Below, one piece after another: positions 5,200-56,891 of a stretch of 64,000 bases of DNA. Numbering within the stretch: the stretch's first letter is position 1; each line of letters opens with the position of its first letter. A model generated the notes under the pieces. The model searched no databases. It had not been told where the DNA came from and worked only from the letters and a program-made list of their open reading frames with translations. This DNA is from an uncultured Clostridia bacterium (GTDB lineage: Bacteria > Bacillota > Clostridia > Christensenellales > CAG-138). The stretch lies in assembly GCA_905235205.1 (NCBI GenBank), contig CAJOKM010000004.1, positions 1,879 through 65,878 on the forward strand, read 5' to 3'. The position numbers were made by a program, and so were the translations under genes.

Positions 5200-7233
5200 A
5201 TGCGAAAGAATCCCGAGATTTTAGCGCCTGTCGGAACGGAAGGATCGCTTGAGGCGGCGGTGTACGCCGGCGCGGACGCGGTCTATTTCGGCGCGGGCGC
5301 ATGCAACGCAAGGCGAAACGCAGGGCAGTTTACGGGCGAACGGTTGCAGGATGCCGTGCGCTTCTGCCACGCGCACGGCGTGAGCGTGCATGTCACAGTC
5401 AATACGCTGGTGCGCGACGAGGAACGGAACGCCGTTGCCGATACGATTGAGGAGATCGCAAGAGCGGGCGTGGACGCCGCGATCGTGCAGGACCTGTGCG
5501 TGATGAAGCTGATCCAAAAGATCTGCCCGTCGCTTCAGATGCACGGATCGACGCAGATGGCGGTGCATAATATCAGCGGCGTACGGGAGCTTGCCGATCT
5601 CGGGTTTTCGCGCGTCGTGCTTGCGCGGGAGCTTTCGATCGGGGAGATCCGCGCGATCCGGCAGGAAACGAACGTGGAGCTTGAGTGTTTCGTGCACGGC
5701 GCGCTGTGTATGAGCGCGTCGGGCATGTGCTATCTGTCCGCCATGCTCGGAGAGCGAAGCGGAAACCGCGGACTGTGCGCACAGCCGTGCAGACTTCCGT
5801 TCACCTGCAACGGGTCAGACTATGCGCTGTCGCTAAAGGACATGTCGCATATCGCGCACTATGCCGAATACCGTGAAATCGGCGTCGATTCGCTGAAGAT
5901 CGAGGGTCGGCTGAAATCGCCCGAGTACGTTGCGGCGACTGTCGACGCGGTGCGCCGCGTACGCGACGGCGAGCCGTACTCCGAGGAGATGCTGAGGAGC
6001 GTGTTCTCAAGAAGCGGGTTTACCGAAGGATACTATCGCGCAGAGCGCAATCATACCATGTTCGGCGTGCGCACCGAAGCGGACGCGAAACGTTCAAAGG
6101 AAGCGGTATCCGACGTGCGCGCGCTGTACCGCGCGCCGCAAAAACGCGTGCCTGTCCGCGCAGAAATCGAGATCCGCGCGGGGCAAGCTGCATCGCTTTC
6201 CGTTTCGGACGGAACGCACACGGTCAAAGCCTCGGGCGACGTTCCCGAGCCTGCCGTGCATGCGCCGCTTTCGGAGGAATCCGTGAAAAAGAGCATCGCA
6301 AAAACGGGCGGGACCCCGTTCTATCTGGATGCGTTCAACTGTGCGCTCGACCCGGGGCTTATGCTTTCCGCATCCTCGCTGAATACGTTGCGCCGGACCG
6401 CGCTCGACGCGCTCTATGAGAAACGTGCCGAACCGCCGGAAAGAGAGATTTTGCATCCGATGCCGGAGCCTGATGGAGCTGTTCGGCGCAGCACGCCGGT
6501 CTTTTGCGTGCGGTATGCGTCAGAGAAGCAGTGGACGGACGATCCGCGTATCGCCTATTACAGCATGCCGCTGAACGTGCTCTTAAAGCATCCGGCGTAT
6601 ATACGGGAAAACGCCGCGGCGGAAGTGCCCGCGCTCGTGTATCCGGATGAGGAAAAGATTGTCGTCTCGAATCTGCTTGCGCTGCGGCAGCAGGGACTGC
6701 GCTATGCCGTTGCCGAGAACATCGGCGCGATCCGGTTGATCCGCGAGGCGGGACTCGTTCCGGTCGGCGGGTACGGACTGAACGTGACAAACAGCGACGC
6801 GATTTTAGAATACGCTAAGCGCGGCGTGCAGATGCAGTTTGTTTCCTTTGAGCTTTCCGCGCCGAAGATCCGCGATCTTTACAGCGCGATCCCGCTCGGC
6901 ATGATCGTTTCGGGGAGGCTTCCGCTGATGCAGCTTCGCGCGTGTCCCGCCAGAACCGACCGCGGCTGCGGATCGTGCGACGGACGTCCCGTCGTCGGCG
7001 ACCGCAAGGGCGCCGCGTTCCCGCTTGTCTGCCATGCGAGACAGTACTCGACGCTTTTGAACAGCGTGCCGCTGTACGTTGCGGACAAACAGCTTCCGCC
7101 GATCGACGCATACGCCGTGTATCTCACCGTCGAGTCGACGGACGAGGCGCGAGCGCTGATTCAAAATACGCTCGACCGCGCGGCGTACCCGGACGCGCAT
7201 ACGACCGGGCTTGCGTTCCGGAATCTTTTATAA
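5200..7233 (+). CDS. peptidase U32 family protein (RlhA/TrhP-type Fe-S hydroxylase family)
   Basis: Start MRKNPEILAPVG inside ORF 5062..7233. Contains AGADAVYFG, LKIEGRLKSPEYV and the cysteine cluster CFVHGALCMSASGMCYLS...CAQPCR. Confidence 0.85.
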   Translation: MRKNPEILAPVGTEGSLEAAVYAGADAVYFGAGACNARRNAGQFTGERLQDAVRFCHAHGVSVHVTVNTLVRDEERNAVADTIEEIARAGVDAAIVQDLCVMKLIQKICPSLQMHGSTQMAVHNISGVRELADLGFSRVVLARELSIGEIRAIRQETNVELECFVHGALCMSASGMCYLSAMLGERSGNRGLCAQPCRLPFTCNGSDYALSLKDMSHIAHYAEYREIGVDSLKIEGRLKSPEYVAATVDAVRRVRDGEPYSEEMLRSVFSRSGFTEGYYRAERNHTMFGVRTEADAKRSKEAVSDVRALYRAPQKRVPVRAEIEIRAGQAASLSVSDGTHTVKASGDVPEPAVHAPLSEESVKKSIAKTGGTPFYLDAFNCALDPGLMLSASSLNTLRRTALDALYEKRAEPPEREILHPMPEPDGAVRRSTPVFCVRYASEKQWTDDPRIAYYSMPLNVLLKHPAYIRENAAAEVPALVYPDEEKIVVSNLLALRQQGLRYAVAENIGAIRLIREAGLVPVGGYGLNVTNSDAILEYAKRGVQMQFVSFELSAPKIRDLYSAIPLGMIVSGRLPLMQLRACPARTDRGCGSCDGRPVVGDRKGAAFPLVCHARQYSTLLNSVPLYVADKQLPPIDAYAVYLTVESTDEARALIQNTLDRAAYPDAHTTGLAFRNLL

Positions 7234-22430: not shown

Positions 22431-23636
22431 ATGAAACGGTTTTTTCGCGCGATCACGGCGCTGTTTTCCGCAATTCTTCTGGGCTGGTACTGTATTCCCG
22501 AGGTATATCGGACGCTGCATCTTCCCGACCGGGTCGACGCGTCGTTTTCGGTTTCCGCACCCGCGATGCGGACGGAACGGACCGATGTGTACGCCGTATC
22601 GGGATCGCGTGACGAGCGATTGCGCGATGTATCCGGGCAGGCGTATTCGATTCGCCTGTTCGGCGTTCTGCCTCTGCGCACCGTGTATGCCGCGGCGCGG
22701 CAGAGGACGGTATGCGTCGGCGGGGAAGCGTTCGGCGTGATTCTCAGGACGAACGGCGTGCAGATCGTCGGGATCGGGTACGTCGACGCCGAGGAGGGCA
22801 GGATCAGTCCGGCGCAGAAAGCGGGCCTAAAAGAGGGCGACGTGATCTGCGCGGTCGACGGGATGACGGTGACCGACACGCAGTCGTTTATCGGACTGTG
22901 CGAAAAAGCGGGCGAGATCTGTACGCTGTCCTGCCTGCGTGAAGACACGCCGTTTACGGTTACGCTTCGGCCTGCGGCGGACAGCGACGGCGTAAAGCGC
23001 ATCGGCGCATGGGTGCGCGACAGCACGTCGGGGATCGGGACCCTGTCGTTTTATGACGCGTCCAGCCGCCGGTTCACCGCGCTCGGGCACGGTGTGACCG
23101 ATGTGGATACGGGAAAGCTGATCGCGCCGGCAAGTTTTTTGAGTGAAGTACGGCTGACCGGGATCCGAACGGGCGACGCAAACAATGCGGGCGAGCTTTT
23201 GGGGCAGTTTTCCGATCGGGAAGCGGACGCGATCGGCTCGGTCGAGCAGAACACCGTGTTCGGAATCGCGGGGACGCTGAGCGGGTTCACAGACACGAAT
23301 GAGACGGCGATCGGGATCGCGCCTGCCGGCGCGGCGCATTTGGGGGATGCGTTCATCCGCTCGACGATCGACGCCGGCGGCGTGCGTGAATACCGGGTTC
23401 GCGTGATCCGCGTCGATGTGCAGTCGTCGCCCGAGACGCAGGGGATGATGATTGAAATTACGGACGACGCATTGCTCGAAAAAACGAACGGCATCGTACA
23501 GGGCATGAGCGGCAGTCCGCTGATCCAGGACGGGAAACTGATCGGCGTCGTGACGCATGTGTTCGTCAGCCGGCCGACGCGCGGATACTGTCTGTACGCG
23601 GACTGGATGGCGCAAAAACTGCTGCCTTCGACATAA
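22431..23636 (+). CDS. spoIVB: SpoIVB peptidase (S55)
   Basis: Start MKRFFRAIT (AAGGAG upstream) inside ORF 22383..23636. PDZ segment GLKEGDVICAVDG, LGHGVTD, and catalytic GMSGSPLIQDGKLIGVVTHV. Confidence 0.9.
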   Translation: MKRFFRAITALFSAILLGWYCIPEVYRTLHLPDRVDASFSVSAPAMRTERTDVYAVSGSRDERLRDVSGQAYSIRLFGVLPLRTVYAAARQRTVCVGGEAFGVILRTNGVQIVGIGYVDAEEGRISPAQKAGLKEGDVICAVDGMTVTDTQSFIGLCEKAGEICTLSCLREDTPFTVTLRPAADSDGVKRIGAWVRDSTSGIGTLSFYDASSRRFTALGHGVTDVDTGKLIAPASFLSEVRLTGIRTGDANNAGELLGQFSDREADAIGSVEQNTVFGIAGTLSGFTDTNETAIGIAPAGAAHLGDAFIRSTIDAGGVREYRVRVIRVDVQSSPETQGMMIEITDDALLEKTNGIVQGMSGSPLIQDGKLIGVVTHVFVSRPTRGYCLYADWMAQKLLPST

Positions 23637-23676
23637 TTTATTCACGGTATTCCCGCGTTTCGTCATTTCTTCACGG

Positions 23677-23705
23677 TTGAATTGCGTCAGGAATTGGCAG
23701 AAAAT
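23677..23705 (+). promoter_or_regulatory. possible sigma-A-like promoter upstream of spo0A
   Basis: TTGAAT (23677-23682), 17-nt spacer, GAAAAT (23700-23705). No convincing sigma-H motif seen. Confidence 0.3.
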
Positions 23706-23730
23706 GGCAGTACGGAGAGGGGGAAACCGT

Positions 23731-24450
23731 ATGCGTATTCTGATGCAAACGACCGACGAAGCGACGGAACGGTCGTATTTATCCGCGGCGGACGAGCTAA
23801 ACGGACTGGATCTTTGCGTGCTGCACGACGAAGCGCAAGCCCTGGAGCGCGCGTTTCGTGAGCCGTTCGACGCACTGATCGTCGATGAAGAAAGCGAGGC
23901 AAGCGACACGCCCGGCACTGACCGCGTCTTTTATCCGGACAATCGGATTCTGCTGTTCGATACAGCGCCCCACGCAATCCCGAGCGAGATCACCTACGCC
24001 TTTTACCGCTCGACGCCGCCGAAAACGGTGCTCGGGCGGATCGGTACGTTTCCGGCGGGAGGCGTACACAGAACCGGAACGGACGCCGCGATCTCACGCT
24101 TTTTACAGCGGGTGGGGGTTCCGGTGCATCTGAACGGATTCTATCTTCTGAAGGATTCGATCCGGCTGATTCTGACCTGCAAACGCCCGACGGACTTGCG
24201 CATCACGCGCGATCTGTATGCGGCGCTGTCCGAAACGCTGCGGATTCCTTCGTCCGGCATCGAGCATGCGATCCGCCATGCGATCGGCGCGGCGTGGCTT
24301 CGGGCGGATGTGGAGCTGCTCGAATCGGTTTTCGGGTACACGGTCAGTTCGGAACGCGCCATGCCGTCCAACGCGGCGTTTCTGTTTACGGCGGCGGAGC
24401 GGATTCGCCTGGAGAGCGGGGAGGAGCAGCGATGGAATACCATGAATTGA
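23731..24450 (+). CDS. spo0A: sporulation transcription factor Spo0A with atypical, shortened receiver domain
   Basis: Start MRILMQTTDE (GGAGAGGGGG upstream) inside ORF 23557..24450. The C-terminal domain matches the Spo0A DNA-binding domain: GVPVHLNGFYLLKDSI..., IEHAIRHAIGAAW, VFGYTVSSERAMPSNAAFLF. Canonical position after spoIVB. Confidence 0.8.
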   Translation: MRILMQTTDEATERSYLSAADELNGLDLCVLHDEAQALERAFREPFDALIVDEESEASDTPGTDRVFYPDNRILLFDTAPHAIPSEITYAFYRSTPPKTVLGRIGTFPAGGVHRTGTDAAISRFLQRVGVPVHLNGFYLLKDSIRLILTCKRPTDLRITRDLYAALSETLRIPSSGIEHAIRHAIGAAWLRADVELLESVFGYTVSSERAMPSNAAFLFTAAERIRLESGEEQRWNTMN

Positions 24451-24908
24451 TCGCACTGTCGGATCGGTTTCACAGCCGGTACCGGGATCCGGACGCGCTT
24501 TTGGACGCGGTGATCAACGCGACGCTTTGCGCGCTGTGCGTTCCGGCAAACCTTTTAGGCTACCGGTATCTGTTCCTTGCGGTTCGCTATATCCGCAAAA
24601 CGCCGCAGGAAAAGCGACTCAACATGCTGCGCGACATCTATCCGCACGTAGCGGAGATGACCGGAACGAATCCGCCCATGGCGGAGCGCGCGATGCGTTA
24701 TGCGATCTCGTGTGCATGGAAACGCGCCGATCCCGAGGTGCTGTATTCATATCTCGGACTGCGCGGACGTGATCTCAAGAACGCGCCGACCAACGTAGAG
24801 TTTCTGTATCTTGTCGCGGAGCGCGTGCGTCTGATCACCGGCGATCCGGAGGACGAAGCGCGGTTTCAAAGACTGATGGAAGAAGCGCACAAGCGTTTCG
24901 GATCGTAA
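24432..24908 (+). CDS. stand-alone Spo0A C-terminal (DNA-binding) domain protein, no receiver domain
   Basis: Start MEYHELIAL (GGGGAGGAG 5 nt upstream) inside ORF 24294..24908. VPANLLGYRYLFLAVRYI, AERAMRYAISCAWKRADPEVLYSYLG and APTNVEFLYLVAERVRL parallel the Spo0A_C blocks. Overlaps spo0A by 19 nt. Confidence 0.75.
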   Translation: MEYHELIALSDRFHSRYRDPDALLDAVINATLCALCVPANLLGYRYLFLAVRYIRKTPQEKRLNMLRDIYPHVAEMTGTNPPMAERAMRYAISCAWKRADPEVLYSYLGLRGRDLKNAPTNVEFLYLVAERVRLITGDPEDEARFQRLMEEAHKRFGS

Positions 24909-26150: not shown

Positions 26151-26975
26151 ATGGAAGATTTGATGAAGATCATCAACAGCGCTGCGGCGCTTCTAAAGGA
26201 ACAGGGCGCGGACAAGGCAACGATCGGACTGATCCTGGGCAGCGGACTCGGCGATTATGCGGAAACGCTCGAAAACAAGCGGTTTGTGAATTATTCGGAT
26301 ATCGAAGGCTACCCGGTCTCGGCGGTCGTCGGGCACAAGAATCGGTTCGTCATCGGCGAAAAAAACGGCAAGACGGTCATCGCCATGCAGGGGCGGTTCC
26401 ATTATTACGAGGGGTATCCGCAGTCGCTTCTGACGCTCGGCGTGCGCACCATGCGAAAGCTCGGCGTAAAGAAGCTTCTGATCACCAACGCGGCGGGCGG
26501 CGTGAATATGAACTACCACGCGGGCGATCTGATGCTGATCTCGGATCACATCAACCTGTCCGGCAGCAATCCGCTGATCGGCAAGAACCTGGACGAGTTC
26601 GGTCCGCGCTTCCCGGATCAGAGCAACGTGTACGATAAGGATCTCCGCGCAAGGATGATCGAACTGTCCATACGCGAAGGGATCCCGATGCAGGAGGGCG
26701 TATACATCATGATGTCCGGTCCGTGCTACGAAACGCCGGCGGAGATCCGCATGGCGCGCGCGCTCGGCGCGGACGCGGTCGGTATGTCCACGGTGCCCGA
26801 AGCGATGTGCGCGGCACACTGCGGCATGAAGGTGCTGGGCATCTCGCTGATCACCAACATGGCGGCGGGCGTACTCGATCAGCCGCTTTCCCACGCGGAG
26901 GTCACCGAAACCGCAGCAAAGGCGACCAAACAATTCACCGCGCTTGTCGATCTGATTTTAAAAGAGATCTTCTGA
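26151..26975 (+). CDS. punA: purine nucleoside phosphorylase (PNP family I, trimeric type)
   Basis: GLILGSGLG, GRFHYYEGY, TNAAGG and AVGMSTVPE. Confidence 0.92.
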   Translation: MEDLMKIINSAAALLKEQGADKATIGLILGSGLGDYAETLENKRFVNYSDIEGYPVSAVVGHKNRFVIGEKNGKTVIAMQGRFHYYEGYPQSLLTLGVRTMRKLGVKKLLITNAAGGVNMNYHAGDLMLISDHINLSGSNPLIGKNLDEFGPRFPDQSNVYDKDLRARMIELSIREGIPMQEGVYIMMSGPCYETPAEIRMARALGADAVGMSTVPEAMCAAHCGMKVLGISLITNMAAGVLDQPLSHAEVTETAAKATKQFTALVDLILKEIF

Positions 26976-26980
26976 TTTTT

Positions 26981-27110
26981 CGCGCCGAAGGCGCGCGCCG
27001 CAAAAGGTTGGTAGCGAGAGATTTTCGTTGTGAGGGCGTTTACAACCGAACAGAAAATCCGAGCGAGACCTTTTGCGGAAAGGAGCCGCGACGGAGCGTG
27101 CGAGCGGTGA
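26981..27110 (-). repeat. tRNA-linked structured repeat, copy A (81-nt hairpin core 26998..27078 plus small GC hairpin 26981..26995)
   Basis: Near-identical to 55437..55562 in the opposite orientation. Closing stem CCGCAAAAGGT/ACCTTTTGCGG. Lies 26 nt distal to the tRNA-Ser(GGA) terminator, in the same sense as the tRNA. Confidence 0.85.
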
Positions 27111-27136
27111 CGCTTCACGGACGTCGGCTGAACTTC

Positions 27137-27183
27137 CCCAAAACGAAAGCGTCGCCGCGAACTCAGCGGAGTCCGCGGCGACG
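27137..27183 (-). terminator. rho-independent terminator of tRNA-Ser(GGA)
   Basis: On the minus strand, CGTCGCCGCGGACTCCGCTGAGTTCGCGGCGACG followed by CTTTCGTTTTGGGG; it begins right after the CCA end. Confidence 0.7.
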
Positions 27184-27274
27184 TGGCGCAGAGAGAGGGA
27201 TTCGAACCCTCGATACGGTTCCCCGTATACACGATTTCCAGTCGTGCGCCTTAGACCAGCTCAGCCATCTCTGC
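27184..27274 (-). tRNA. tRNA-Ser (anticodon GGA)
   Basis: Manual fold: acceptor GCAGAGA/TCTCTGC, anticodon stem CACGA/TCGTG, loop CTGGAAA, long variable arm, T-arm GAGGG-TTCGAAT-CCCTC, encoded CCA. Confidence 0.9.
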
Positions 27275-27431: not shown

Positions 27432-27506
27432 GGGGCATTAGCACAGTTGGTAGCGCGCAACGTTCGCAATGTTGAGGTCAGGAGTTCGAATCTCCTATGC
27501 TCCACC
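27432..27506 (+). tRNA. tRNA-Ala (anticodon CGC)
   Basis: Acceptor GGGGCAT/ATGCTCC with the G3:U70 alanine identity pair, anticodon loop TTCGCAA, T-loop GGTTCGAATCC-like AGGAGTTCGAATCTCCT, encoded CCA. Confidence 0.9.
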
Positions 27507-27546
27507 ACGTCGTCGTAAGTCTCACTTGACTTGCGACGATTTTTTT
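27507..27546 (+). terminator. rho-independent terminator after tRNA-Ala
   Basis: CGTCGTCGTAAGTC-TCACTT-GACTTGCGACGA followed by a T7 run; starts immediately after CCA. Confidence 0.75.
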
Positions 27547-48533: not shown

Positions 48534-49925
48534 TCATGCTATTTCAAAGCCGTGGATCCAGTCGGACTTTTTATAGTAGATGAAATAGATCACCGAGCTG
48601 ATAAACCAGGTCAGCGGATAGGCGGCAAAGAGCAGGATGATCTCATGACGGATCGACATGGCGACCGTGATATAAATGATGCGGAACACGCACCACACCG
48701 CAAGCATGATGACCATCGGTACGATCGCCTTGCCTGCGCCGCGGCAGATGCCCGCGATGGAGTGCGAAAACGCCAAGAGGAAGAAAAACAGCGATTCCAC
48801 ACGGCACTGCCGTGCGCCGATTGCGATAATCTCCTGCACCGCCTGCGGGTCCTGGTCGGTGATAAAGGTCGAGATGAAGAATCCGCCGAAAAAGAACAGC
48901 ACGATCCCGACGATCTCCGCCATGGTGATCGACGTGAGGATGCCGAACCGCGCGCCTTCTCTTGCGCGGTCGTACTGTCTCGCGCCGAGGTTCTGACCGA
49001 TGTAGCTTGTCAAAGCCATCGAGAAGCTCATGATCGGCAGGAACACGAAGCCTTCGATGCGCGAATACGCGCCGCACGCCGCCATGGCGAGCGCGCCGAA
49101 GCTGTTGATGTTGGTCTGCACGAGCACGTTCGCCAATCCGATGACGGAGTTCTGCACGCCGGTCGGAAGCCCGTAGCGGACGATCTCCTTGAGGCTCAGC
49201 CGGTCCATGCGCAGTTTCTTCCATTCAAGGCGGTAGACGGTTCCTTTGCGGGTGAGTTGAATGAGGCAGAGAATTGCGCTGACGGTCTGAGATAGGACCG
49301 TCGCGATCGCCGCCCACTCGACGCCGAGCCCAAGCGCCCCGACAAAGAACAGGTCGAGCAGGACGTTCAAAACGGAGGACACGATGAGGTAGTACAGCGG
49401 ACGGCGGCTGTCGCCGACCGCGTTCATGACGCCCTTCATCGAGTTGTACATGACCACGGGAACGGAGCCCAGGAAATAGTAGCGCAGGTACGCGACCGAG
49501 TTCGGCATGACGTTTTCGGGCACGCCCATCCATTTGAGAATCTGCGGCGTCATGACCACGCCGAACACCGAAAGCACGATCCCGCAGATCAGAGAGAACA
49601 CGGTGTTGGTATGGACCGCCTTTGAAACGCGGTCGAGATCGCCCGCGCCGAAATAGCGTGAGATCACCACGCCCGCGCCCATCGACGCGCCGACAAAAAA
49701 GCTGATCAGAAGGTAAATGAGACTCCCCGAGGAATTGACCGCCGCGAGCGCTTCCTTGCCGAGGAAGTTTCCGACGATCCACGAGTCCGCCGTGTTGTAG
49801 AGCTGCTGAAAGAGCTGGCTTAAGAAGATCGGCGTCGCAAAGGAGACGAGCACCTTCCACGGCTTGCCTTCGGTCAGCAGCCGTGCGGATTGCGGATGAT
49901 GGTGGAAGATGGAAGAGAGTTTCAT
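48534..49925 (-). CDS. MATE family efflux transporter
   Basis: 463 aa, 12 TM helices, N-terminal PIFLSQLFQQLYNTADSWIVGNFLG. Confidence 0.9.
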   Translation of the reverse strand: MKLSSIFHHHPQSARLLTEGKPWKVLVSFATPIFLSQLFQQLYNTADSWIVGNFLGKEALAAVNSSGSLIYLLISFFVGASMGAGVVISRYFGAGDLDRVSKAVHTNTVFSLICGIVLSVFGVVMTPQILKWMGVPENVMPNSVAYLRYYFLGSVPVVMYNSMKGVMNAVGDSRRPLYYLIVSSVLNVLLDLFFVGALGLGVEWAAIATVLSQTVSAILCLIQLTRKGTVYRLEWKKLRMDRLSLKEIVRYGLPTGVQNSVIGLANVLVQTNINSFGALAMAACGAYSRIEGFVFLPIMSFSMALTSYIGQNLGARQYDRAREGARFGILTSITMAEIVGIVLFFFGGFFISTFITDQDPQAVQEIIAIGARQCRVESLFFFLLAFSHSIAGICRGAGKAIVPMVIMLAVWCVFRIIYITVAMSIRHEIILLFAAYPLTWFISSVIYFIYYKKSDWIHGFEIA

Positions 49926-50005
49926 ATTTTTGGATTCAAATCATGGATCGGTGAAATCTGCTTACGCAGATGAAATTCGCCCTGCGGACGGAGGAAATCC
50001 GCCAG

Positions 50006-50139
50006 CCGCGCCGCAGGCGCGCAACCGCAAGCGATTGGTAGCGCAGCGGAGGCGTTGAGAGGGCGCTTGCAACCGAGCAGCCGTAGCAAGCGTGATCGCT
50101 TGCGGAAAGGAGGAGCGGCGGAGCAAGGCGCAGCGGCGG
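50006..50139 (-). repeat. tRNA-linked structured repeat, diverged copy C (81-nt hairpin core 50024..50104; small GC hairpin 50006..50020)
   Basis: Same architecture and length as copies A and B, but the closing stem is CCGCAAGCGAT/ATCGCTTGCGG (three compensatory pair changes). Lies 12 nt distal to the tRNA-Ser(GCT) terminator. Confidence 0.8.
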
Positions 50140-50151
50140 ATTGTTTCTGCA

Positions 50152-50192
50152 AGAAAAAAGCCGCCGCGAGCTCAGCGGAGCCCGCGACGACG
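50152..50192 (-). terminator. rho-independent terminator of the tRNA-Ser pair
   Basis: Minus-strand CGTCGTCGCGGGCTCCGCTGAGCTCGCGGCGGC followed by a T6 run. Confidence 0.75.
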
Positions 50193-50285
50193 TGGCGCGG
50201 AAAGTGGGATTTGAACCCACGCACCGGTCATCCCAGTCTACTCCCTTAGCAGGGGAGCCCCTTATAGCCACTTGGGTATTTCCGC
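50193..50285 (-). tRNA. tRNA-Ser (anticodon GCT)
   Basis: Acceptor GCGGAAA/TTTCCGC, anticodon stem CTCCC/GGGAG, loop CTGCTAA, long variable arm, T-arm GTGGG-TTCAAAT-CCCAC, encoded CCA. Confidence 0.9.
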
Positions 50286-50302
50286 GTGCTTTTCGAGAAA
50301 AT

Positions 50303-50389
50303 GGCGGAGATGGTAGGATTTGAACCCACGGATGCTCTCACATCAACGGTTTTCAAGACCGCCTCCTTAAGCCACTCGGACACATCTCC
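50303..50389 (-). tRNA. tRNA-Ser (anticodon TGA)
   Basis: Acceptor GGAGATG/CATCTCC, anticodon loop CTTGAAA, long variable arm, T-loop TTCAAAT, encoded CCA. Confidence 0.9.
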
Positions 50390-50402
50390 TCGCGCAATGC
50401 GC

Positions 50403-50431
50403 ATTATAACAAATCGGCGTGCGAATGTCAA
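50403..50431 (-). promoter_or_regulatory. consensus sigma-A promoter for the tRNA-Ser pair
   Basis: Minus-strand TTGACA (50431-50426), 17-nt spacer, TATAAT (50408-50403). Confidence 0.7.
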
Positions 50432-50484
50432 TCTTTATTTGAACCGTATTTTCGGCAGGAAAACCGAATCCGGACAGAATCCGC

Positions 50485-50512
50485 TTGATTTATGACGGCT
50501 TGTTTTGTATAA
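50485..50512 (+). promoter_or_regulatory. sigma-A type promoter for queA-tgt-tsaEB-rimI
   Basis: TTGATT (50485-50490), 16-nt spacer, TATAAT (50507-50512). Confidence 0.6.
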
Positions 50513-50543
50513 TGAATTGATTTTACAGAGTTGAGGCATCCGA

Positions 50544-52694
<2,151 letters not shown>

Positions 52695-52695
<1 letters not shown>

Positions 52696-53153
52696 TGCCG
52701 ATCAAACGAACCGTTGAAACCGAAGAACAGATGCTTGCGCTCGGAAAGCGTGTTGCGGACCTGCTCGAAAAGACCGGGTTTATCGCGCTGTACGGAAACC
52801 TCGGCGCGGGCAAAACGGTGTTTGCGCGCGGCGTTGCGAGCGCGTTCGGCGTCTCTCACGTGCAGAGTCCGACGTTTACGATCGTATGCGAATACCCGAC
52901 AAAGCCGCATCTCTGTCACTTTGACGCATACCGGCTGTCCGACGCCGACGAGCTCTATGCGATCGGGTTCGAAGACTACCTAAAGGATGACGCGATGCTT
53001 TTGATGGAGTGGGCGAACCTTGTTTCGTCCGCGCTTCCGAAGGATCGTCTGGACGTGACGGTAACGGGGTCCGGCATGGATGTGCGCACGGTGGAACTGA
53101 CGCCGCGAGGCCCGCGGTATGAGGAGATATTTCATGAAGATTCTTGCGTTTGA
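52695..53153 (+). CDS. tsaE: tRNA t6A37 biosynthesis ATPase TsaE
   Basis: LYGNLGAGKTVFARG, SPTFTIV, HFDAYRL. Confidence 0.9.
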
Positions 53154-53721
53154 AACAACCGACGCGGTCGCGTCCGTCGCGCTGTATCTGGACGGCGCGA
53201 TCGACTGCACCGTGATCGAAACGGATCGCAGACACGCCGAATCCGTTCTGCCTGCGGCGGAGGCGCTGCTGTCCGGACACGGACTTACCACCGCCGATAT
53301 GGATCTGTTTGCGGCGGACGCGGGGCCCGGCTCGTTCACCGGCGTGCGGATCGGCGTATGCATGGCAAACGCGCTCGGCGCGGCGCATGGGAAACCGGTC
53401 GTCGCGGTCAATGCGCTTGAAACGCTCGCGTACCCGTACCGGGAGGAAACGGTCTGCGCGCTGATCGACGCGCGTAACGGAAACGCTTATGGCGCGGTCT
53501 ACGAGAACGGCGCGGTCCGAATTGCCCCGTGCGCGTGCGTGATCGACGATTTTACGGCGAATTTGGACACGGACTGCCGGATGGTCGGCACGGCGACAAA
53601 CGACCCGAAATTGCCCTCTGCGGCGGACGTTGCAAGGATCGCCGCAAACCGGACGGGGGAGAAGGAGATCGCTCCGCTGTATCTGAAGCTTTCGCAGGCG
53701 GAACGGATGTGGAACAAATGA
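53134..53721 (+). CDS. tsaB: tRNA t6A37 biosynthesis protein TsaB
   Basis: Start MKILAFETTD inside ORF 53119..53721; GPGSFTGVRIGV. Confidence 0.88.
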   Translation: MKILAFETTDAVASVALYLDGAIDCTVIETDRRHAESVLPAAEALLSGHGLTTADMDLFAADAGPGSFTGVRIGVCMANALGAAHGKPVVAVNALETLAYPYREETVCALIDARNGNAYGAVYENGAVRIAPCACVIDDFTANLDTDCRMVGTATNDPKLPSAADVARIAANRTGEKEIAPLYLKLSQAERMWNK

Positions 53722-54242
53722 CGACCGTCCGACCGATGACAAAAGCCGATATCGACGCGGTCTATACCGTTGAAGCGCAGTCGTTCCGTTCGCCGTGGTC
53801 CAAGCACTCGCTGCTCGGCGAGCTCAAAAACAAGGTCGCGCATTACGCGGTCATGGAGCTTGACGGCGACGTGATCGGCTACTGCGGCATGTGGGTGCTG
53901 TTCGACGAAGCGCATATCACCAATATCGCGATCCTGCCCGCGCATCGCGGAAACGGATACGGCAAACAGCTTCTGCACGCGTCCATGCGTGTGGCGGCGT
54001 CGTTCGGCGCGGAAATGATGACGCTCGAGGTGCGCGAAACAAACACGGTCGCGCAGCGCATGTACGGCGAGATGGACTTTTCGGAGCAGGGATTCCGCAA
54101 GCGCTACTATACCGACACCGGCGAGGGCGCGAAGCTGATGTGGAACCGGAACATTGTGAAAACGGTCGAAAATAATACTTGCCTTGCGGAAACTTATCTG
54201 TTAGAATCGGAAGCGTTCAAAAAAGGAGAGAGGGAAGCATGA
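53718..54242 (+). CDS. rimI: ribosomal protein S18-alanine N-acetyltransferase
   Basis: Start [13 protein letters not shown] inside ORF 53529..54242. [17 protein letters not shown], and tsaE-tsaB-rimI order. Confidence 0.85.
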
Positions 54243-54739
54243 GTTTATACGAAACATGGCAGCAGGTTGCGCAGTCGCCTGAGACGCAGGAAGCGTACAA
54301 CGCGTTCTGGAGCACCTATTTTGAAGCGGAGAAGCAGAACTACAAGAAGATTTTAGCGAATCACGAGACGGTCTTTTCGGGCAAGCTTAAAGAGGTCGCA
54401 AAGCAGTTCGATATGGATCCGGTGACGTTTACCGGATTTCTGGACGGCGCAAACTCGAGCCTAAAAGACGGCGAGCTCGATCTGAACGCGCTGACCGAGG
54501 AGAGCGAGATCGCGCTGAAGTTCGATTTCGACCGGCTGTATATCAATATGCACAACGCGAAGGCGGACTGGCTTTTTAACCTGCCGGAATGGGAAACCGT
54601 GCGCACGGCGGAGCAGCGTAAAGAACTGACCAGGCAGTACCGCGCGGAAAAGATTTTCGTCGCGCCGCCTTCGGTCGGCAGGAACGATCCGTGCCCGTGC
54701 GGAAGCGGCAAAAAGTATAAAAAGTGCTGCGGCAGATGA
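54239..54739 (+). CDS. SEC-C metal-binding motif protein
   Basis: Start MSLYETWQQ (ATGA overlap with rimI); C-terminal [19 protein letters not shown]. Confidence 0.75.
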
Positions 54740-54756
54740 TTTGCCGAAAAAATGGA

Positions 54757-54785
54757 TTGACAGAACCGGATTCGTCTGTTAAAAT
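54757..54785 (+). promoter_or_regulatory. sigma-A type promoter of the six-tRNA operon
   Basis: TTGACA (54757-54762), 17-nt spacer, TAAAAT (54780-54785). Confidence 0.7.
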
Positions 54786-54804
54786 ACGAATTCGGAACTG
54801 CGAT

Positions 54805-54881
54805 GCGTCTGTAGCTCAGCAGGATAGAGCAACGGCCTTCTAAGCCGTAGGTCCCGGGTTCGAATCCCTGCAGGCGCGCCA
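54805..54881 (+). tRNA. tRNA-Arg (anticodon TCT)
   Basis: Anticodon stem ACGGC/GCCGT, loop CTTCTAA, T-loop GGTTCGAATCC, encoded CCA. Confidence 0.9.
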
Positions 54882-54935
54882 ACGGCGCATCCCCGAGGGA
54901 AGCCCCGGGGATGCGCATCCTCACAAACGGCACGT

Positions 54936-55013
54936 GGTGGATATAGTTCAGTTGGTTAGAATGCCAGATTGTGGCTCTGGAGGTCGTGGGTTCGAGTCCC
55001 ACTATCCACCCCA
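54936..55013 (+). tRNA. tRNA-His (anticodon GTG) with encoded G-1
   Basis: An extra 5' G pairs with C73. Acceptor GTGGATA/TATCCAC, anticodon loop TTGTGGC, encoded CCA. Confidence 0.9.
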
Positions 55014-55051
55014 TTGTCCGGGGCCGGTCAATGCCGGCTCCGGCGCATCGC

Positions 55052-55126
55052 TGGGGTGTAGCCAAGCGGTAAGGCAACGGACTTTGACTCCGTCATTCGT
55101 GCGTTCAAATCGCGCCACCCCAGCCA
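55052..55126 (+). tRNA. tRNA-Gln (anticodon TTG)
   Basis: Acceptor TGGGGTG/CACCCCA, anticodon stem ACGGA/TCCGT, loop CTTTGAC, encoded CCA. Confidence 0.9.
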
Positions 55127-55129
55127 TAT

Positions 55130-55205
55130 GACCCGTTAGCTCAGTCGGTAGAGCACTTGACTTTTAATCAAGGTGTCCGGGGTTCGAATCCCCGACGGGT
55201 CACCA
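55130..55205 (+). tRNA. tRNA-Lys (anticodon TTT)
   Basis: Acceptor GACCCGT/ACGGGTC, anticodon stem CTTGA/TCAAG, loop CTTTTAA, encoded CCA. Confidence 0.9.
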
Positions 55206-55213
55206 CATTCCGG

Positions 55214-55297
55214 GCGGACGTGGCGGAATTGGCAGACGCGCCGGATTTAGGTTCCGGTGCCATAGGCGTATGAGTTCAAGTCTCTTCGTCCGCACCA
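55214..55297 (+). tRNA. tRNA-Leu (anticodon TAG)
   Basis: Acceptor GCGGACG/CGTCCGC, anticodon stem CCGGA/TCCGG, loop TTTAGGT, long variable arm, encoded CCA. Confidence 0.9.
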
Positions 55298-55300
55298 TAT

Positions 55301-55374
55301 GCAGGTATAGTGTAGCGGTAACACATTAGCCTTCCAAGCTGAGATCACGGGTTCGAGTCCCGTTACCTGCTCCA
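55301..55374 (+). tRNA. tRNA-Gly (anticodon TCC)
   Basis: Acceptor GCAGGTA/TACCTGC, anticodon loop CTTCCAA, T-loop GGTTCGAGTCC, encoded CCA. Confidence 0.9.
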
Positions 55375-55413
55375 CGTCGCCGCAAGCTTCACTGAGCTTG
55401 CGGCGACTTTTTT
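55375..55413 (+). terminator. rho-independent terminator of the tRNA operon
   Basis: CGTCGCCGCAAGCT-TCACTG-AGCTTGCGGCGAC followed by a T6 run; begins right after CCA. Confidence 0.8.
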
Positions 55414-55436
55414 ATTTCATAAACAAGTCACCGCTG

Positions 55437-55562
55437 CGCCTTGTTCCGCTGCGGCTCCTCTCCGCAAAAGGTCACGCTCGGATTTTCTGTTCGGTTGTAA
55501 ACGCCCTCACAACGAAAATCTCTCGCTACCAACCTTTTGCGGGTTTCCGCGCCTGCGGCGCG
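55437..55562 (+). repeat. tRNA-linked structured repeat, copy B (81-nt hairpin core 55462..55542; small GC hairpin 55548..55562)
   Basis: Reverse complement of copy A with only a few mismatches. Closing stem CCGCAAAAGGT/ACCTTTTGCGG. Lies 23 nt after the tRNA operon terminator. Confidence 0.85.
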
Positions 55563-55611
55563 TCTGTATGAGGCTTCCCCTTGAGGGGAAGCTCCGCGAA
55601 GCGGTGATGAG

Positions 55612-55682
55612 GTGTTGCAAACGCGCTCACAACGGCTCGCTCTCGCTACCAACCTTTTGCGGGTTTCCGCGTCTAATGCGCG
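55612..55682 (+). repeat. partial (3' half) copy of the tRNA-linked repeat
   Basis: GGTGTTGCAAACGCGCTCACAACGGCTCGCTCTCGCTACCAACCTTTTGCGGGTTTCCGCG matches the distal half of copy B. It is preceded by the perfect hairpin GCTTCCCC-TTGA-GGGGAAGC (55573-55592). Confidence 0.75.
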
Positions 55683-55689
55683 TTCAATA

Positions 55690-55725
55690 AAAGAAAAGAT
55701 CCGGTTTCAAGCCGGATCCTGTGTT
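55690..55725 (-). terminator. terminator of the MBL-fold gene
   Basis: Minus-strand GGATCCGGCTTGAAACCGGATC followed by TTTTCTTTTATT. Confidence 0.65.
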
Positions 55726-56547
55726 TTATTCGTTCACGGTGATTGTGCCTTCGGCGACAGTCACATGTACGTCGCCGTTTTTCGTTTGCAGGATGACGGG
55801 CTCGAACAGATCGAGCGTTTGCATCGTCTTCTCCTCGGCGGGGTTCTTCGCGGAATCGCAGATCACGACGTATTGCGGCAGCGCAACGGCGAGCAGTTCA
55901 AACAGATTCGCGTCGTACACGCCGTGGTGCGGCAGCTTCAGAATATCGCAGGTCAGGTTTTTTCCGGAAAAGACCAGCGCCTTCAATTCATCTTTTTCGG
56001 CGTCGCCCATGAAAAGCAGCGTTTTTCCGCCGTACAGGATCTTTGTGATCAGCGACTGCTCGTTGTCGCTCTTGCCGTCGAACGCGACGGGAGAGACCCA
56101 CACGGACAGATCCATCGCGCCGAACGACATCGTTTCGTCCTCGGTCTGCCTTGTGACCGGGACGTTCGCAGCGTCGATCTCTTCCAGAAGCTCGGTGCGC
56201 TGCTTGGATTCCTTTTCATAGGCCGGCATGATGATGCGCGCGATCGGAAGCGAGCGGATCAGCGCGTCCGCGCCGCCGATGTGATCCTTGTCAAAATGCG
56301 TGAGAATCAGAAGGTCCAGCTTTTCGACGCCGAGCGCGCGAAGGGCTTCGACCAGCTCGTCGCCGTCGCCGTTTTCTCCGGTGTCGATCATAACGGCAGC
56401 GTCGCTCGTGCGGATCAGAAGCGCGTCCGCCTTGCCGACCGAAAAGGCGTACAGTTCCAGTTTATCCGCCGTATCCGAATCCGCCGGATGGCATGCGCAG
56501 CCCGCAAGCAGAAGCAGGGCAATCAGGATGAGAATCAATCGTTTCAT
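55726..56547 (-). CDS. MBL-fold metallo-hydrolase lipoprotein (ComEC C-terminal domain-like)
   Basis: Start MKRLILILIALLLLAGC (lipobox) inside ORF 55726..56679. LILTHFDKDHIGG and LKLPHHG metal motifs. Confidence 0.8.
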   Translation of the reverse strand: MKRLILILIALLLLAGCACHPADSDTADKLELYAFSVGKADALLIRTSDAAVMIDTGENGDGDELVEALRALGVEKLDLLILTHFDKDHIGGADALIRSLPIARIIMPAYEKESKQRTELLEEIDAANVPVTRQTEDETMSFGAMDLSVWVSPVAFDGKSDNEQSLITKILYGGKTLLFMGDAEKDELKALVFSGKNLTCDILKLPHHGVYDANLFELLAVALPQYVVICDSAKNPAEEKTMQTLDLFEPVILQTKNGDVHVTVAEGTITVNE

Positions 56548-56651
56548 AGGATCAGTATACCCGAACCGCGCCCTCTTGACAAGTCCCGAATCTGTGGTAT
56601 ACTGTAGATACGAACAAATGTTCGAATATCGTCGAAAGCGGATGAAAGAGC

Positions 56652-56891
56652 ATGAAAGTATATGTGGGCGTAGAGACATACACGGACGAAGACGGACATG
56701 TGCGGCCGCAGACGGTGCATTGGACGGACGGACGGCGGTTTGAGATTCAGAAGGTTTTGGACGAGCGGCGCGCCGCGTGCATCCAGGCAGGCGGCAGAGG
56801 CCTGCGTTATACGTGTCTGATCAACGGTCGGACGGCGTTTCTGTTCTTCGAGGGACCGCGCTGGTTTGTGAACGCGGCTAAAAAAGCATAA
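56652..56891 (+). CDS. hypothetical small protein
   Basis: 79 aa with non-biased composition (MKVYVGVETYTDEDGHVRPQTVHWTDGRRFEIQKVLDER...). No family recognised. Confidence 0.5.
   Translation: MKVYVGVETYTDEDGHVRPQTVHWTDGRRFEIQKVLDERRAACIQAGGRGLRYTCLINGRTAFLFFEGPRWFVNAAKKA

Follow-up and report, generated by a model that had tools for sequence, protein, structure and literature searches.

tRNA Loci and Repeat Copies in a Clostridia Contig

We analyzed a stretch of 64,000 nucleotides (the window) from an uncultured Clostridia bacterium of the Christensenellales (assembly GCA_905235205.1, contig CAJOKM010000004.1, positions 1,879 to 65,878), in which ARAGORN places ten tRNA genes in four transcription units and in which a structured, multi-copy repeat recurs behind those units. 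The window holds three full copies of the repeat (A, B, and C) and one 3' half copy (D), each placed 3' of a tRNA unit whose strand it shares. A preliminary description of positions 26981-27110, whose sequence is as it was described there, had given this count and placement, and a motif scan confirmed both. The apical motif of the central hairpin, GTTGYAARCGCNCTCNCAACG, occurs at four sites, 27026-46 (-), 50053-73 (-), 55494-514 (+), and 55614-34 (+), against 0.07 matches expected from shuffled sequence when up to three mismatches are allowed, and the 3'-arm motif CGCTACCAANNNNTTGCGG returns the identical four sites. With about 60 intergenic regions per 64 kb, the chance that the three element-bearing regions would all fall among the four behind tRNA units is about 1e-4 by a rough estimate.

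27184-27274, minus strand: tRNA-Ser-GGA, with copy A behind it
27432-27507, plus strand: tRNA-Ala-CGC, with the terminator module only behind it
50193-50389, minus strand: tRNA-Ser-TGA/GCT pair, with copy B behind it
54805-55374, plus strand: six-tRNA operon, with copies C and D behind it

Read in tRNA sense, the modules follow one another as a hairpin (H1), a T-tract, an A-tract with a helix (P0), segments [3] and [4], a CTCCT linker, a second hairpin (P1), and lineage-specific tail hairpins, and they are laid out in the window as follows.

27151-27183, minus strand: copy A, H1, a C and a GTCG...CGAC hairpin directly after the CCA of tRNA-Ser-GGA
27138-27150, minus strand: copy A, degenerate T-tract after H1
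27079-27150, minus strand: copy A, middle part with T-tract, small hairpin, segments [3] and [4], and GGCTCCTTTC linker
26998-27078, minus strand: copy A, P1, the 81-nt imperfect hairpin that is the core of the finding
26981-26995, minus strand: copy A, optional small GC hairpin CGCGCC-TTC-GGCGCG
50160-50192, minus strand: copy B, H1 terminator hairpin, immediately following the CCA of tRNA-Ser-GCT (50193-50285)
50154-50159, minus strand: copy B, T6 tract
50106-50159, minus strand: copy B, middle part with T-tract, P0, segments [3] and [4], and CTCCTCCTTTC linker
50025-50105, minus strand: copy B, P1 hairpin of the second subfamily
50007-50021, minus strand: copy B, small GC hairpin
55375-55413, plus strand: copy C, H1 with 14-bp stem, tetraloop, and T6, directly after the CCA of tRNA-Gly-TCC
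55414-55461, plus strand: copy C, middle part with P0 A-tract, segments [3] and [4], and GGCTCCTCT linker
55462-55542, plus strand: copy C, P1 hairpin
55548-55562, plus strand: copy C, small GC hairpin
55564-55613, plus strand: tail module joining copies C and D, a GGCTTCCCC-TTGA-GGGGAAGC hairpin and CCGCGAAGCGG
55614-55662, plus strand: copy D, 5'-truncated P1 with apical part and 3' arm only
55668-55682, plus strand: copy D, degenerate small GC hairpin
27508-27546, plus strand: solo H1, CCA-C-GTCGTCG...CGACGA-T7 after tRNA-Ala-CGC, without P0 or P1

Copies A and C are 96% identical across 98 nt and 98.8% identical in P1 alone, while copy B represents a second subfamily, in which the P1 closing stem CCGCAAGCGAT/ATCGCTTGCGG replaces the CCGCAAAAGGT/ACCTTTTGCGG of A and C by three compensatory pair changes. 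The hairpin length of 81 nt and the closing stem given earlier are present in the window copies. The inner GATTTTC/GAAAATC stem is likewise present, but in the A/C subfamily only, and the CGCGCC-NNN-GGCGCG hairpin, found in the window, proved to be lineage-specific rather than family-wide. Segment [3] of copy A (GTCACCGC) nearly repeats H1's 5' arm, to which segment [4] is complementary; the GC hairpin of this copy and the stop codon of the convergent purine-nucleoside phosphorylase (PNP) gene (26151-26975) are 6 nt apart. The tRNA-Gly-TCC gene (55301-55374), which precedes copy C, is the last in the six-tRNA operon.

A Terminator One Base Beyond CCA

In an alignment of the four copies, similarity begins at the base right after the tRNA CCA. 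H1 is a GC-rich hairpin of 12-14 bp that starts with GTCG, one base beyond the encoded CCA, and is followed by a T-tract. The extent of 125-135 nt first proposed for the repeat is therefore replaced by a unit of 170-200 nt that begins at CCA+1 with this terminator hairpin, and conservation reaches about 90 nt 5' of the P1 closing stem. In other genomes the junction CCA-N-GTCG (N mostly C) recurs in about 30 tRNA-abutting copies behind at least 20 tRNA species. A CCA-N(0-2)-GTCG sequence lies within 190 nt upstream of 70 of the 129 evaluable P1 copies (54%), compared with 7.9% of random windows from the same loci. A variant junction, with CCT instead of CCA before C-GTCG, follows tRNA-like 3' fragments in loci L038, L050, L107, L085, L058, L114, and L002.

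By its sequence character, H1 is the intrinsic terminator of its tRNA unit: it combines a GC-rich hairpin with a T-tract at the unit end, and its G.U wobbles fall on the tRNA-sense strand. The H1 modules of copies B and C (14 pairs, 9-10 of them GC, a tetraloop, and T6) are the two best terminator-like sites in 49900-55800; the T-tract of copy A is degenerate. Terminal tRNAs that lack P1 end in unrelated, ordinary terminators in 16 of 19 cases; H1 is therefore part of the element and not something that tRNA genes of these genomes carry in general. The repeat had been described as lying beyond the terminator of each tRNA unit, and the tRNA linkage in that statement stands; the terminator itself is not independent, and since it belongs to the repeat, the element supplies the terminator rather than lying distal to one. 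Behind tRNA-Ala-CGC, the solo H1 is a family member reduced to the terminator module, and a BioY-family gene starts about 18 nt beyond it.

No sigma-70-like promoter was found inside the elements in the scanned interval 49900-55800. The two tRNA units of this interval have near-perfect extended -10 sigma-70 promoters, TTGACA-17-TATAAT plus TG at 50403-50431 (-) and, for the six-tRNA operon, TTGACA-17-TAAAAT plus TG at 54757-54785 (+).

Several other readings of the terminator region were considered and rejected. H1 is not a 13-8-13 recombinase core site, as its stems reach 14 bp with tetraloops, like ordinary strong terminators, and a back-to-back antisense terminator formed by the flank and the A-tract is weak for window copy C and fails, on manual inspection, in AT-rich subfamilies. 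In Escherichia coli, the 3' external transcribed spacer (3'ETS) of leuZ lies between tRNA and terminator, is single-copy without any repeat family, and is released by tRNA processing. The present element resembles 3'ETS-leuZ in being encoded right after the last tRNA of an operon and behind a tRNA promoter, its expression being a prediction, but its conserved body lies beyond a strong terminator and not between tRNA and terminator, which by position argues against a 3'ETS-derived small RNA. Class C group II introns are mobile and land just 3' of intrinsic terminators, oriented like the gene that is terminated; here, in contrast, the terminator is part of the repeat and not its target, and no Rfam intron match appears to E 10. 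A fragment of such an intron was also rejected on sequence features, with no GUGYG after the T-tract, no domain V/VI, and no intron-family hit.

Distribution and tRNA Linkage Across Clostridia

We surveyed the distribution of the repeat with the exact apical pattern, using one genome per species; copy counts here and below refer to the fetched loci rather than to complete genomes. The matches listed comprise at least 116 loci, about 110 of which are true copies from about 85 Clostridia genomes, nearly all of them gut or rumen Clostridia. Carriers among the matches listed include Oscillospiraceae (with the isolate Youxingia wuxianensis NSJ-64, locus L005), Acutalibacter, Candidatus Fimenecus, and Christensenellales, as well as a Marvinbryantia metagenome-assembled genome and a genome labelled Anaerovoracaceae. 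The few matches in unrelated phyla sit inside genes and fit the roughly 17 chance hits estimated for the pattern. A hidden Markov model of P1 gave 157 hits over all fetched loci. Between genomes, the repeat is 80-90% conserved while flanking genes have no detectable nucleotide similarity. One P1 sequence is 100% identical between L061, the locus with the Anaerovoracaceae label, and L024, L028, and L047 of Candidatus Fimenecus, that is, between differently labelled orders, which is either a binning or labelling problem or a recent horizontal transfer.

Among the matches listed, 43 copies have a tRNA within 300 nt upstream on their own strand and no copy has one on the opposite strand; additional copies are second or third array members behind a tRNA. 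The tRNA linkage that the preliminary description had proposed checking in other genomes consequently holds far beyond the window, and the copies are not a tRNA-free scatter. One copy lies about 170 nt past a tmRNA gene.

Ahead of many apparently tRNA-less copies lies a tRNA 3' fragment that finishes in CCA. Such fragments at L001, L009, and L012 directly repeat the end of the tRNA next to them and flank other small inserts; because this is the footprint of integrase crossover, the copies at these three loci were originally tRNA-linked too. The inserts, of 165-400 nt between tRNA and element (L009 300-900 (-), L012 6650-7460 (-), and L001 4850-5760, minus-oriented), are flanked by direct repeats of the last 13-18 nt of the tRNA, and those of L009 and L012 carry an inverted T-arm-like sequence, GATTTGAACGYAGT. 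They look like decayed integrative elements or attachment (att)-site accretion at tRNA-Arg and tRNA-Leu.

The tRNA 3' ends are classic integration sites, and the duplicated tRNA 3' fragments and small inserts beside these copies could suggest that the repeats are themselves relics of tRNA-proximal att flanks, left by integrative elements once resident in these tRNA genes. We disfavour this explanation as extremely improbable, given that the element stands behind at least 20 different and intact tRNA species, that it begins after CCA and not within the gene, and that the window copies lie 6-100 nt from housekeeping genes with neither a second att copy nor an integrase.

A Covarying Fold That Competes With the Terminator

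Pairing in P1 was evaluated over 97 distinct copies against 500 shuffles and slid controls. The 11-bp outer stem is 94.8% paired, with compensatory change at all 11 pairs; none of the 500 shuffles reaches the observed pairing or covariation, and the slid controls stay at or below 51%. The inner 3-bp helix of P1 also covaries strongly (GC/AU/UA and CG/UA/GC). Toward the apex, where a GTTGT/ACAAC stem had initially been drawn, covariation backs a different fold, namely UGY:RCA (42 U-A, 38 C-G), two G-C pairs (GG:CC), and a U.G with a G-C pair (UG:CG) around a YAAR loop. At the two ends of this loop the bases covary perfectly (78 U..A, 19 C..G; alignment columns 49/52, which are 55498/55501 in copy C); they could pair only around a 2-nt loop, and the covariation may stem from a mini-hairpin in DNA or from a contact, tertiary or with protein.

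RNAalifold, applied to 35 complete units, yields two further helices. In P0, the T-tract and the 3' end of H1 pair with the following A-tract, with compensatory change at six of six pairs, and a near copy of the H1 5' arm that follows the A-tract pairs back onto the H1 3' arm within the same helix. In the long-range helix [1]:[4], the H1 5' arm pairs with the segment just before CTCCT (93% paired, seven of eight pairs compensatory). Since segment [4] is complementary to the H1 5' arm, the [1]:[4] helix excludes H1, and H1 is incompatible with P0 and [1]:[4] as a pair. The CTCCT pyrimidine linker between segment [4] and P1 is nearly invariant, and the apical region of P1 almost so.

The strand on which P1 folds is ambiguous from counts of G-U versus A-C mismatches. 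Variable positions in the middle and apical parts of P1 hold 151 G-T against 37 A-C, which favours the tRNA-sense strand, whereas the outer stem (21 A-C against 8 G-T) and the best-covarying apical pair, 41-60 (9 C-A against 2 U-G), favour the other. The antisense strand folds more stably in 99 of 99 copies, perhaps just through its G-richness.

These folds bear most directly on the main rival to the reading that we develop below, and one compatible with it: a functional structured RNA made by read-through of tRNA operons, which we regard as possible, though at rather low confidence. Some polymerases would pass H1, and their RNA would refold into [1]:[4] and P0, expose the CUCCU linker, and form P1, after which tRNA 3' processing would free an RNA of about 170 nt from CCA+1. 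Such an RNA could act in cis, serving 3' maturation of the tRNA, insulation, or fail-safe termination; a role in trans might run, for instance, via the pyrimidine linker or via P1 with its invariant loop. The multi-copy status of the element would then amount to one module per tRNA operon. The strict co-orientation with the tRNA at zero spacing fits this explanation, as do the covariation in H1, [1]:[4], P0, and P1, the mutually exclusive folds that share a terminator arm, the excess of G-U over A-C in mid and apical P1 together with the sense-strand wobbles of H1, the strong consensus promoters on tRNA units whose elements have none of their own, and the conservation of the repeat between genomes with dissimilar flanking genes. 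However, an alternative fold located 3' of the terminator cannot decide termination co-transcriptionally, the mismatches of the best-covarying helices and the antisense fold stability point to the other strand, and the orientation of downstream genes is random. Moreover, the near-identical paralogues, arrays, truncations, phage-borne copies, and patchy orthologous presence described below are unusual for a fixed regulatory RNA.

An Rfam 15 scan of the window at gathering scores returned only the ten tRNAs, and permissive scans of copies A and C/D to E=10 gave chance-level matches only, the best over P1 being OxyS (E 0.67-2.4). The initial impression that the repeat corresponds to no known RNA family or insertion sequence (IS) end agrees with these scans, and neither a literature search for the repeat nor a search of 8 million papers for the exact apical sequence returned a description of it. 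The repeat has no coding capacity, with no open reading frame (ORF) conserved across copies. An antisense mini-ORF or leader peptide (AGGAG followed by GTG/ATG, reading MSEL in one subfamily) was rejected for want of a conserved start or frame: a start codon lies 3-12 nt after the antisense purine run in only 51 of 96 copies, and the peptides range from 1 to more than 60 amino acids and do not share frames. The repeat is also not the cis-regulatory leader of a particular gene, because neighbour genes are oriented at random on both sides.

Turnover, Arrays, and Decay

The metallo-beta-lactamase-fold gene (55726-56679), convergent to the six-tRNA operon, provided an orthologous-site comparison with 80 related metagenome loci, 12 of which keep the tRNA-Gly-TCC end with an identical 3' sequence. 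Ordinary A-tract/hairpin/T-tract terminators follow eight of these 12 ends, H1 only follows two (L139, L144), and one has H1, one element, and a second, partial H1. In the closest relative (90% protein identity), H1 is followed by three P1 copies of two subfamilies, compared with one and a half in the window, and two conspecific strains keep the window arrangement with single substitutions. The PNP gene adjoining copy A gives no orthologous-site comparison, as synteny breaks in the 84-89% relatives. Within one genome, P1 is identical or 98.8% identical across tRNA loci and contigs, and the closest P1 to 25 of 48 copies is found in their own genome. Arrays hold two to three head-to-tail units, and 5'-truncated copies (about 7-10) outnumber 3'-truncated ones (two).

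The junctions and arrays raise the question of whether the repeat spreads through RNA, in the manner of a short interspersed nuclear element (SINE). The trailer RNA would be copied by a reverse transcriptase (RT) that is supplied in trans and recognises P1; at the RNA 5' end the enzyme would change templates, moving to a 3' CCA that belongs either to a mature tRNA or to another element RNA, and the hybrid cDNA would recombine with the tRNA gene, placing the element at CCA+1, while repeated switches would build head-to-tail arrays. The RT of a Neurospora retroplasmid is reported to switch to tRNAs and 3' CCA ends, which yields concatemers and chimeras with tRNA (10.1101/2021.05.13.443781), a precedent for such a route. 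The mitochondrial retroplasmids (Mauriceville/Varkud) described there share with our repeat the junctions of tRNA CCA with the element 5' end and the head-to-tail concatemers, but they are eukaryotic organelle plasmids that encode their own RT, whereas no RT is linked to the element here and the CCA is genome-encoded. A retro-mobile origin would account for the precise CCA-N-GTCG junction behind many unrelated tRNAs, with only the single base N variable, for the arrays and the excess of 5' truncations, for copies behind short tRNA 3' fragments (several of about 18 nt that start just past the T loop), and for the lack of a DNA transposase nearby. Every tRNA gene seen encodes CCA, however, so that the CCA itself is no sign of an RNA origin, and T-loop crossovers by an integrase, as at L001, L009, and L012, account for the tRNA fragments just as well. 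In addition, H1 should stop most transcripts before the body is made, and the copies carry no poly-A or other 3' retro signature. We consider this route improbable.

The tail module that joins copies C and D, with the order GGCTTCCCC-TTGA-GGGGAAGC, CCGCGAAGCGG, TGATGAGGT, also follows P1 in L012, L017, L098, and L102, and because it recurs after P1 in related genomes, the arrangement of C and D is conserved and not a random tandem. A hammerhead-like reading of this module (GTGATGAGG) was rejected, being without Rfam support. Between half copy D and the convergent metallo-beta-lactamase-fold gene lies a bidirectional terminator (55696-55720), which the tRNA operon may originally have used before the element displaced it.

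Individual loci record further rearrangement. At L025 (44-150, plus strand), an exact reverse complement of the P1 3' arm and its flank stands in place of the 5' arm and its flank, and the resulting long, perfect palindrome, centred on the apical loop, has the sequence expected of quasipalindrome correction by template switching. A foreign module of about 58 nt (CCACTYCGCTSCGCTTCGTTACAKAGGTGCCGTCGCRYGCTTCCCGCGCGTCGCCATG, with its own GC hairpin) is lodged in or just before the P1 5' arm at L084 (about 7170-7230, minus strand) and also occurs in L004, L035, L045, and L009, as a second small repeat family nested in the first. Two true copies are in viral contigs without tRNAs. One of these (L119, 512-1650) stands at the 3' end of an ORF whose motifs, HUH-like (HHHLIV) and Y-x-x-K, are of a type common in rolling-circle initiators; the copy is antisense to the phage genes, and the association may be a coincidence.

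Absence of a Linked Enzyme and Comparison With Known Repeats

All-vs-all clustering of ORFs from 116 loci for a transposase, integrase, or RT partner returned nothing beyond housekeeping families in synteny and spurious ORFs that span the repeat, and the Pfam-annotated region of about 40 kb around the window copies contains housekeeping genes only. Neither the recurrent neighbours nor these 40 kb include a RAYT, the transposase associated with repetitive extragenic palindromic (REP) sequences.

Comparison with IS200/IS605-derived palindrome-associated elements gives a mixed picture. Like them, the repeat has hairpins at both ends and no terminal inverted repeat (TIR) or target-site duplication (TSD), but such elements insert 3' of a fixed tetra- or pentanucleotide, and in our copies CCA precedes 54% and the rest have no common target. 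The repeat might be a cis site for an enzyme acting on single-stranded DNA, either an HUH/Y1 transposase (IS200/IS605-RAYT type) or some other recombinase specific for hairpins, with H1 and P1 as subterminal hairpins and a target composed of the tRNA T-arm hairpin and the CCA at a fixed distance. Beyond the terminal hairpins without TIR or TSD, such an enzyme would be consistent with orientation-specific insertion, with G-T and A-C mismatches that are both infrequent and similar in number in the outer stem, as for a DNA hairpin, with the perfect palindrome of L025, which implies hairpin formation in DNA, and with the HUH-like ORF that adjoins the phage-borne copy. We nevertheless judge it quite unlikely, as TnpA, RAYT, and TnpB genes were not seen near any copy, the tRNA-free copies have no conserved target tetranucleotide, the defining features of REPs are lacking, and H1 is a canonical RNA terminator with sense-strand wobbles.

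REP sequences and REPINs, which are mobilised by RAYT, an IS200/IS605-family Y1 transposase, are similarly extragenic, palindromic, multi-copy, and located at gene 3' ends without TIR or TSD, and are thought to act as single-strand hairpins. REPs, however, are 20-40 nt long with a conserved 5' tetranucleotide, often form inverted doublets, number in the hundreds, and have no tie to tRNAs, whereas our unit spans 170-200 nt, contains several unlike hairpins, and has shown no accompanying RAYT in the neighbourhoods surveyed. We rejected a REP/REPIN assignment on the length and varied hairpins of the unit, there being no GTAG-type short palindrome and no inverted doublets, and P1 arms that are complementary only in parts. 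A MITE (miniature inverted-repeat transposable element) was rejected as well: the unit ends (GTCG... versus ...GCGG or the tail) form no TIR, and the filled and empty tRNA-Gly sites show no TSD. The REP/MITE-like candidate put forward earlier thus loses its defining features, and its mobility or turnover is supported by the orthologous tRNA-Gly end and by near-identity within genomes. With copies neither scattered free of tRNAs nor matched by an Rfam family or IS end, none of the three candidates in the preliminary description (a read-through non-coding RNA, a REP/MITE-like element, or a recombinase/RAYT target) is refuted on the terms set there.

The nearest described analogues would be the SPRITE and BOX repeats of Streptococcus pneumoniae, which are small, structured, and terminator-like, without a known transposase (PMC3049150). 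As defined there, this class is short, non-coding, multi-copy, structured, modular, variable, and without its own transposase, and our repeat has each of these properties. The shared traits extend to a length below 200 nt, strong structure if transcribed, enrichment at gene 3' ends, a modular (BOX) or terminator-like (SPRITE) build, plausible co-option as terminators, and slow turnover between strains. SPRITE and BOX, in contrast, are essentially confined to one species group and scattered behind protein genes, while the present family spans several Clostridia orders, abuts the tRNA CCA with single-base precision in one orientation, and combines a canonical terminator with a second, conserved 81-nt hairpin and a terminator-competing helix; there is no sequence similarity between them. 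The repeat is therefore set apart by its address one base past CCA in tRNA orientation, by its breadth across Clostridia, and by a covarying fold with a helix that competes with the terminator.

A Candidate Interspersed Repeat Specific for tRNA 3' Ends

We favour, at roughly even confidence, the reading that this repeat is a non-autonomous, terminator-carrying small interspersed element specific for tRNA 3' ends, a "tRNA-trailer element." Such an element would occupy the 3' boundary of tRNA genes and bring its own terminator, by virtue of which it would be tolerated or even useful there. It would be gained, lost, multiplied in head-to-tail arrays, and homogenised among the tRNA loci of one genome. 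Its spread would presumably need a trans-acting factor working on the folded single strand, for which the conserved hairpins may serve as recognition sites.

Several observations weigh against this reading. No insertion enzyme or mechanism, terminal inverted repeat, or target duplication was identified in the loci analyzed, and about 40% of copies are without the CCA junction. Gain at the orthologous tRNA-Gly site, which is not polarised by phylogeny, could in part be differential loss. Conservation over several Clostridia orders is also typical of a functional RNA, as are covariation in five to six helices, a terminator-competing helix, and strict co-orientation with tRNAs. The invariance of the apical motif is partly ascertainment, because the loci were fetched with that motif.

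If the favoured reading is correct, a small interspersed repeat with single-base target precision for tRNA-gene 3' ends is distributed among gut and rumen Clostridia, many of them uncultured and a few cultured, and this raises the question of what recognises a gene ending in CCA; cultured carriers exist in which mobility could be tested. Most tRNA operons in these genomes may end in a shared, exchangeable terminator cassette, which would matter for the 3' maturation of tRNAs and for read-through into genes next to them. The covariation-supported fold makes the repeat a candidate for a new structured RNA family in Rfam-type curation, and its presence or absence could serve as a marker of recent rearrangement at tRNA loci.

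Elsewhere in the window, at about 23557-24908 on the plus strand (L209 7581-8758), two adjoining and slightly overlapping ORFs of 239 and 158 amino acids both match the Spo0A C-terminal domain family and could be two paralogues or a split gene.

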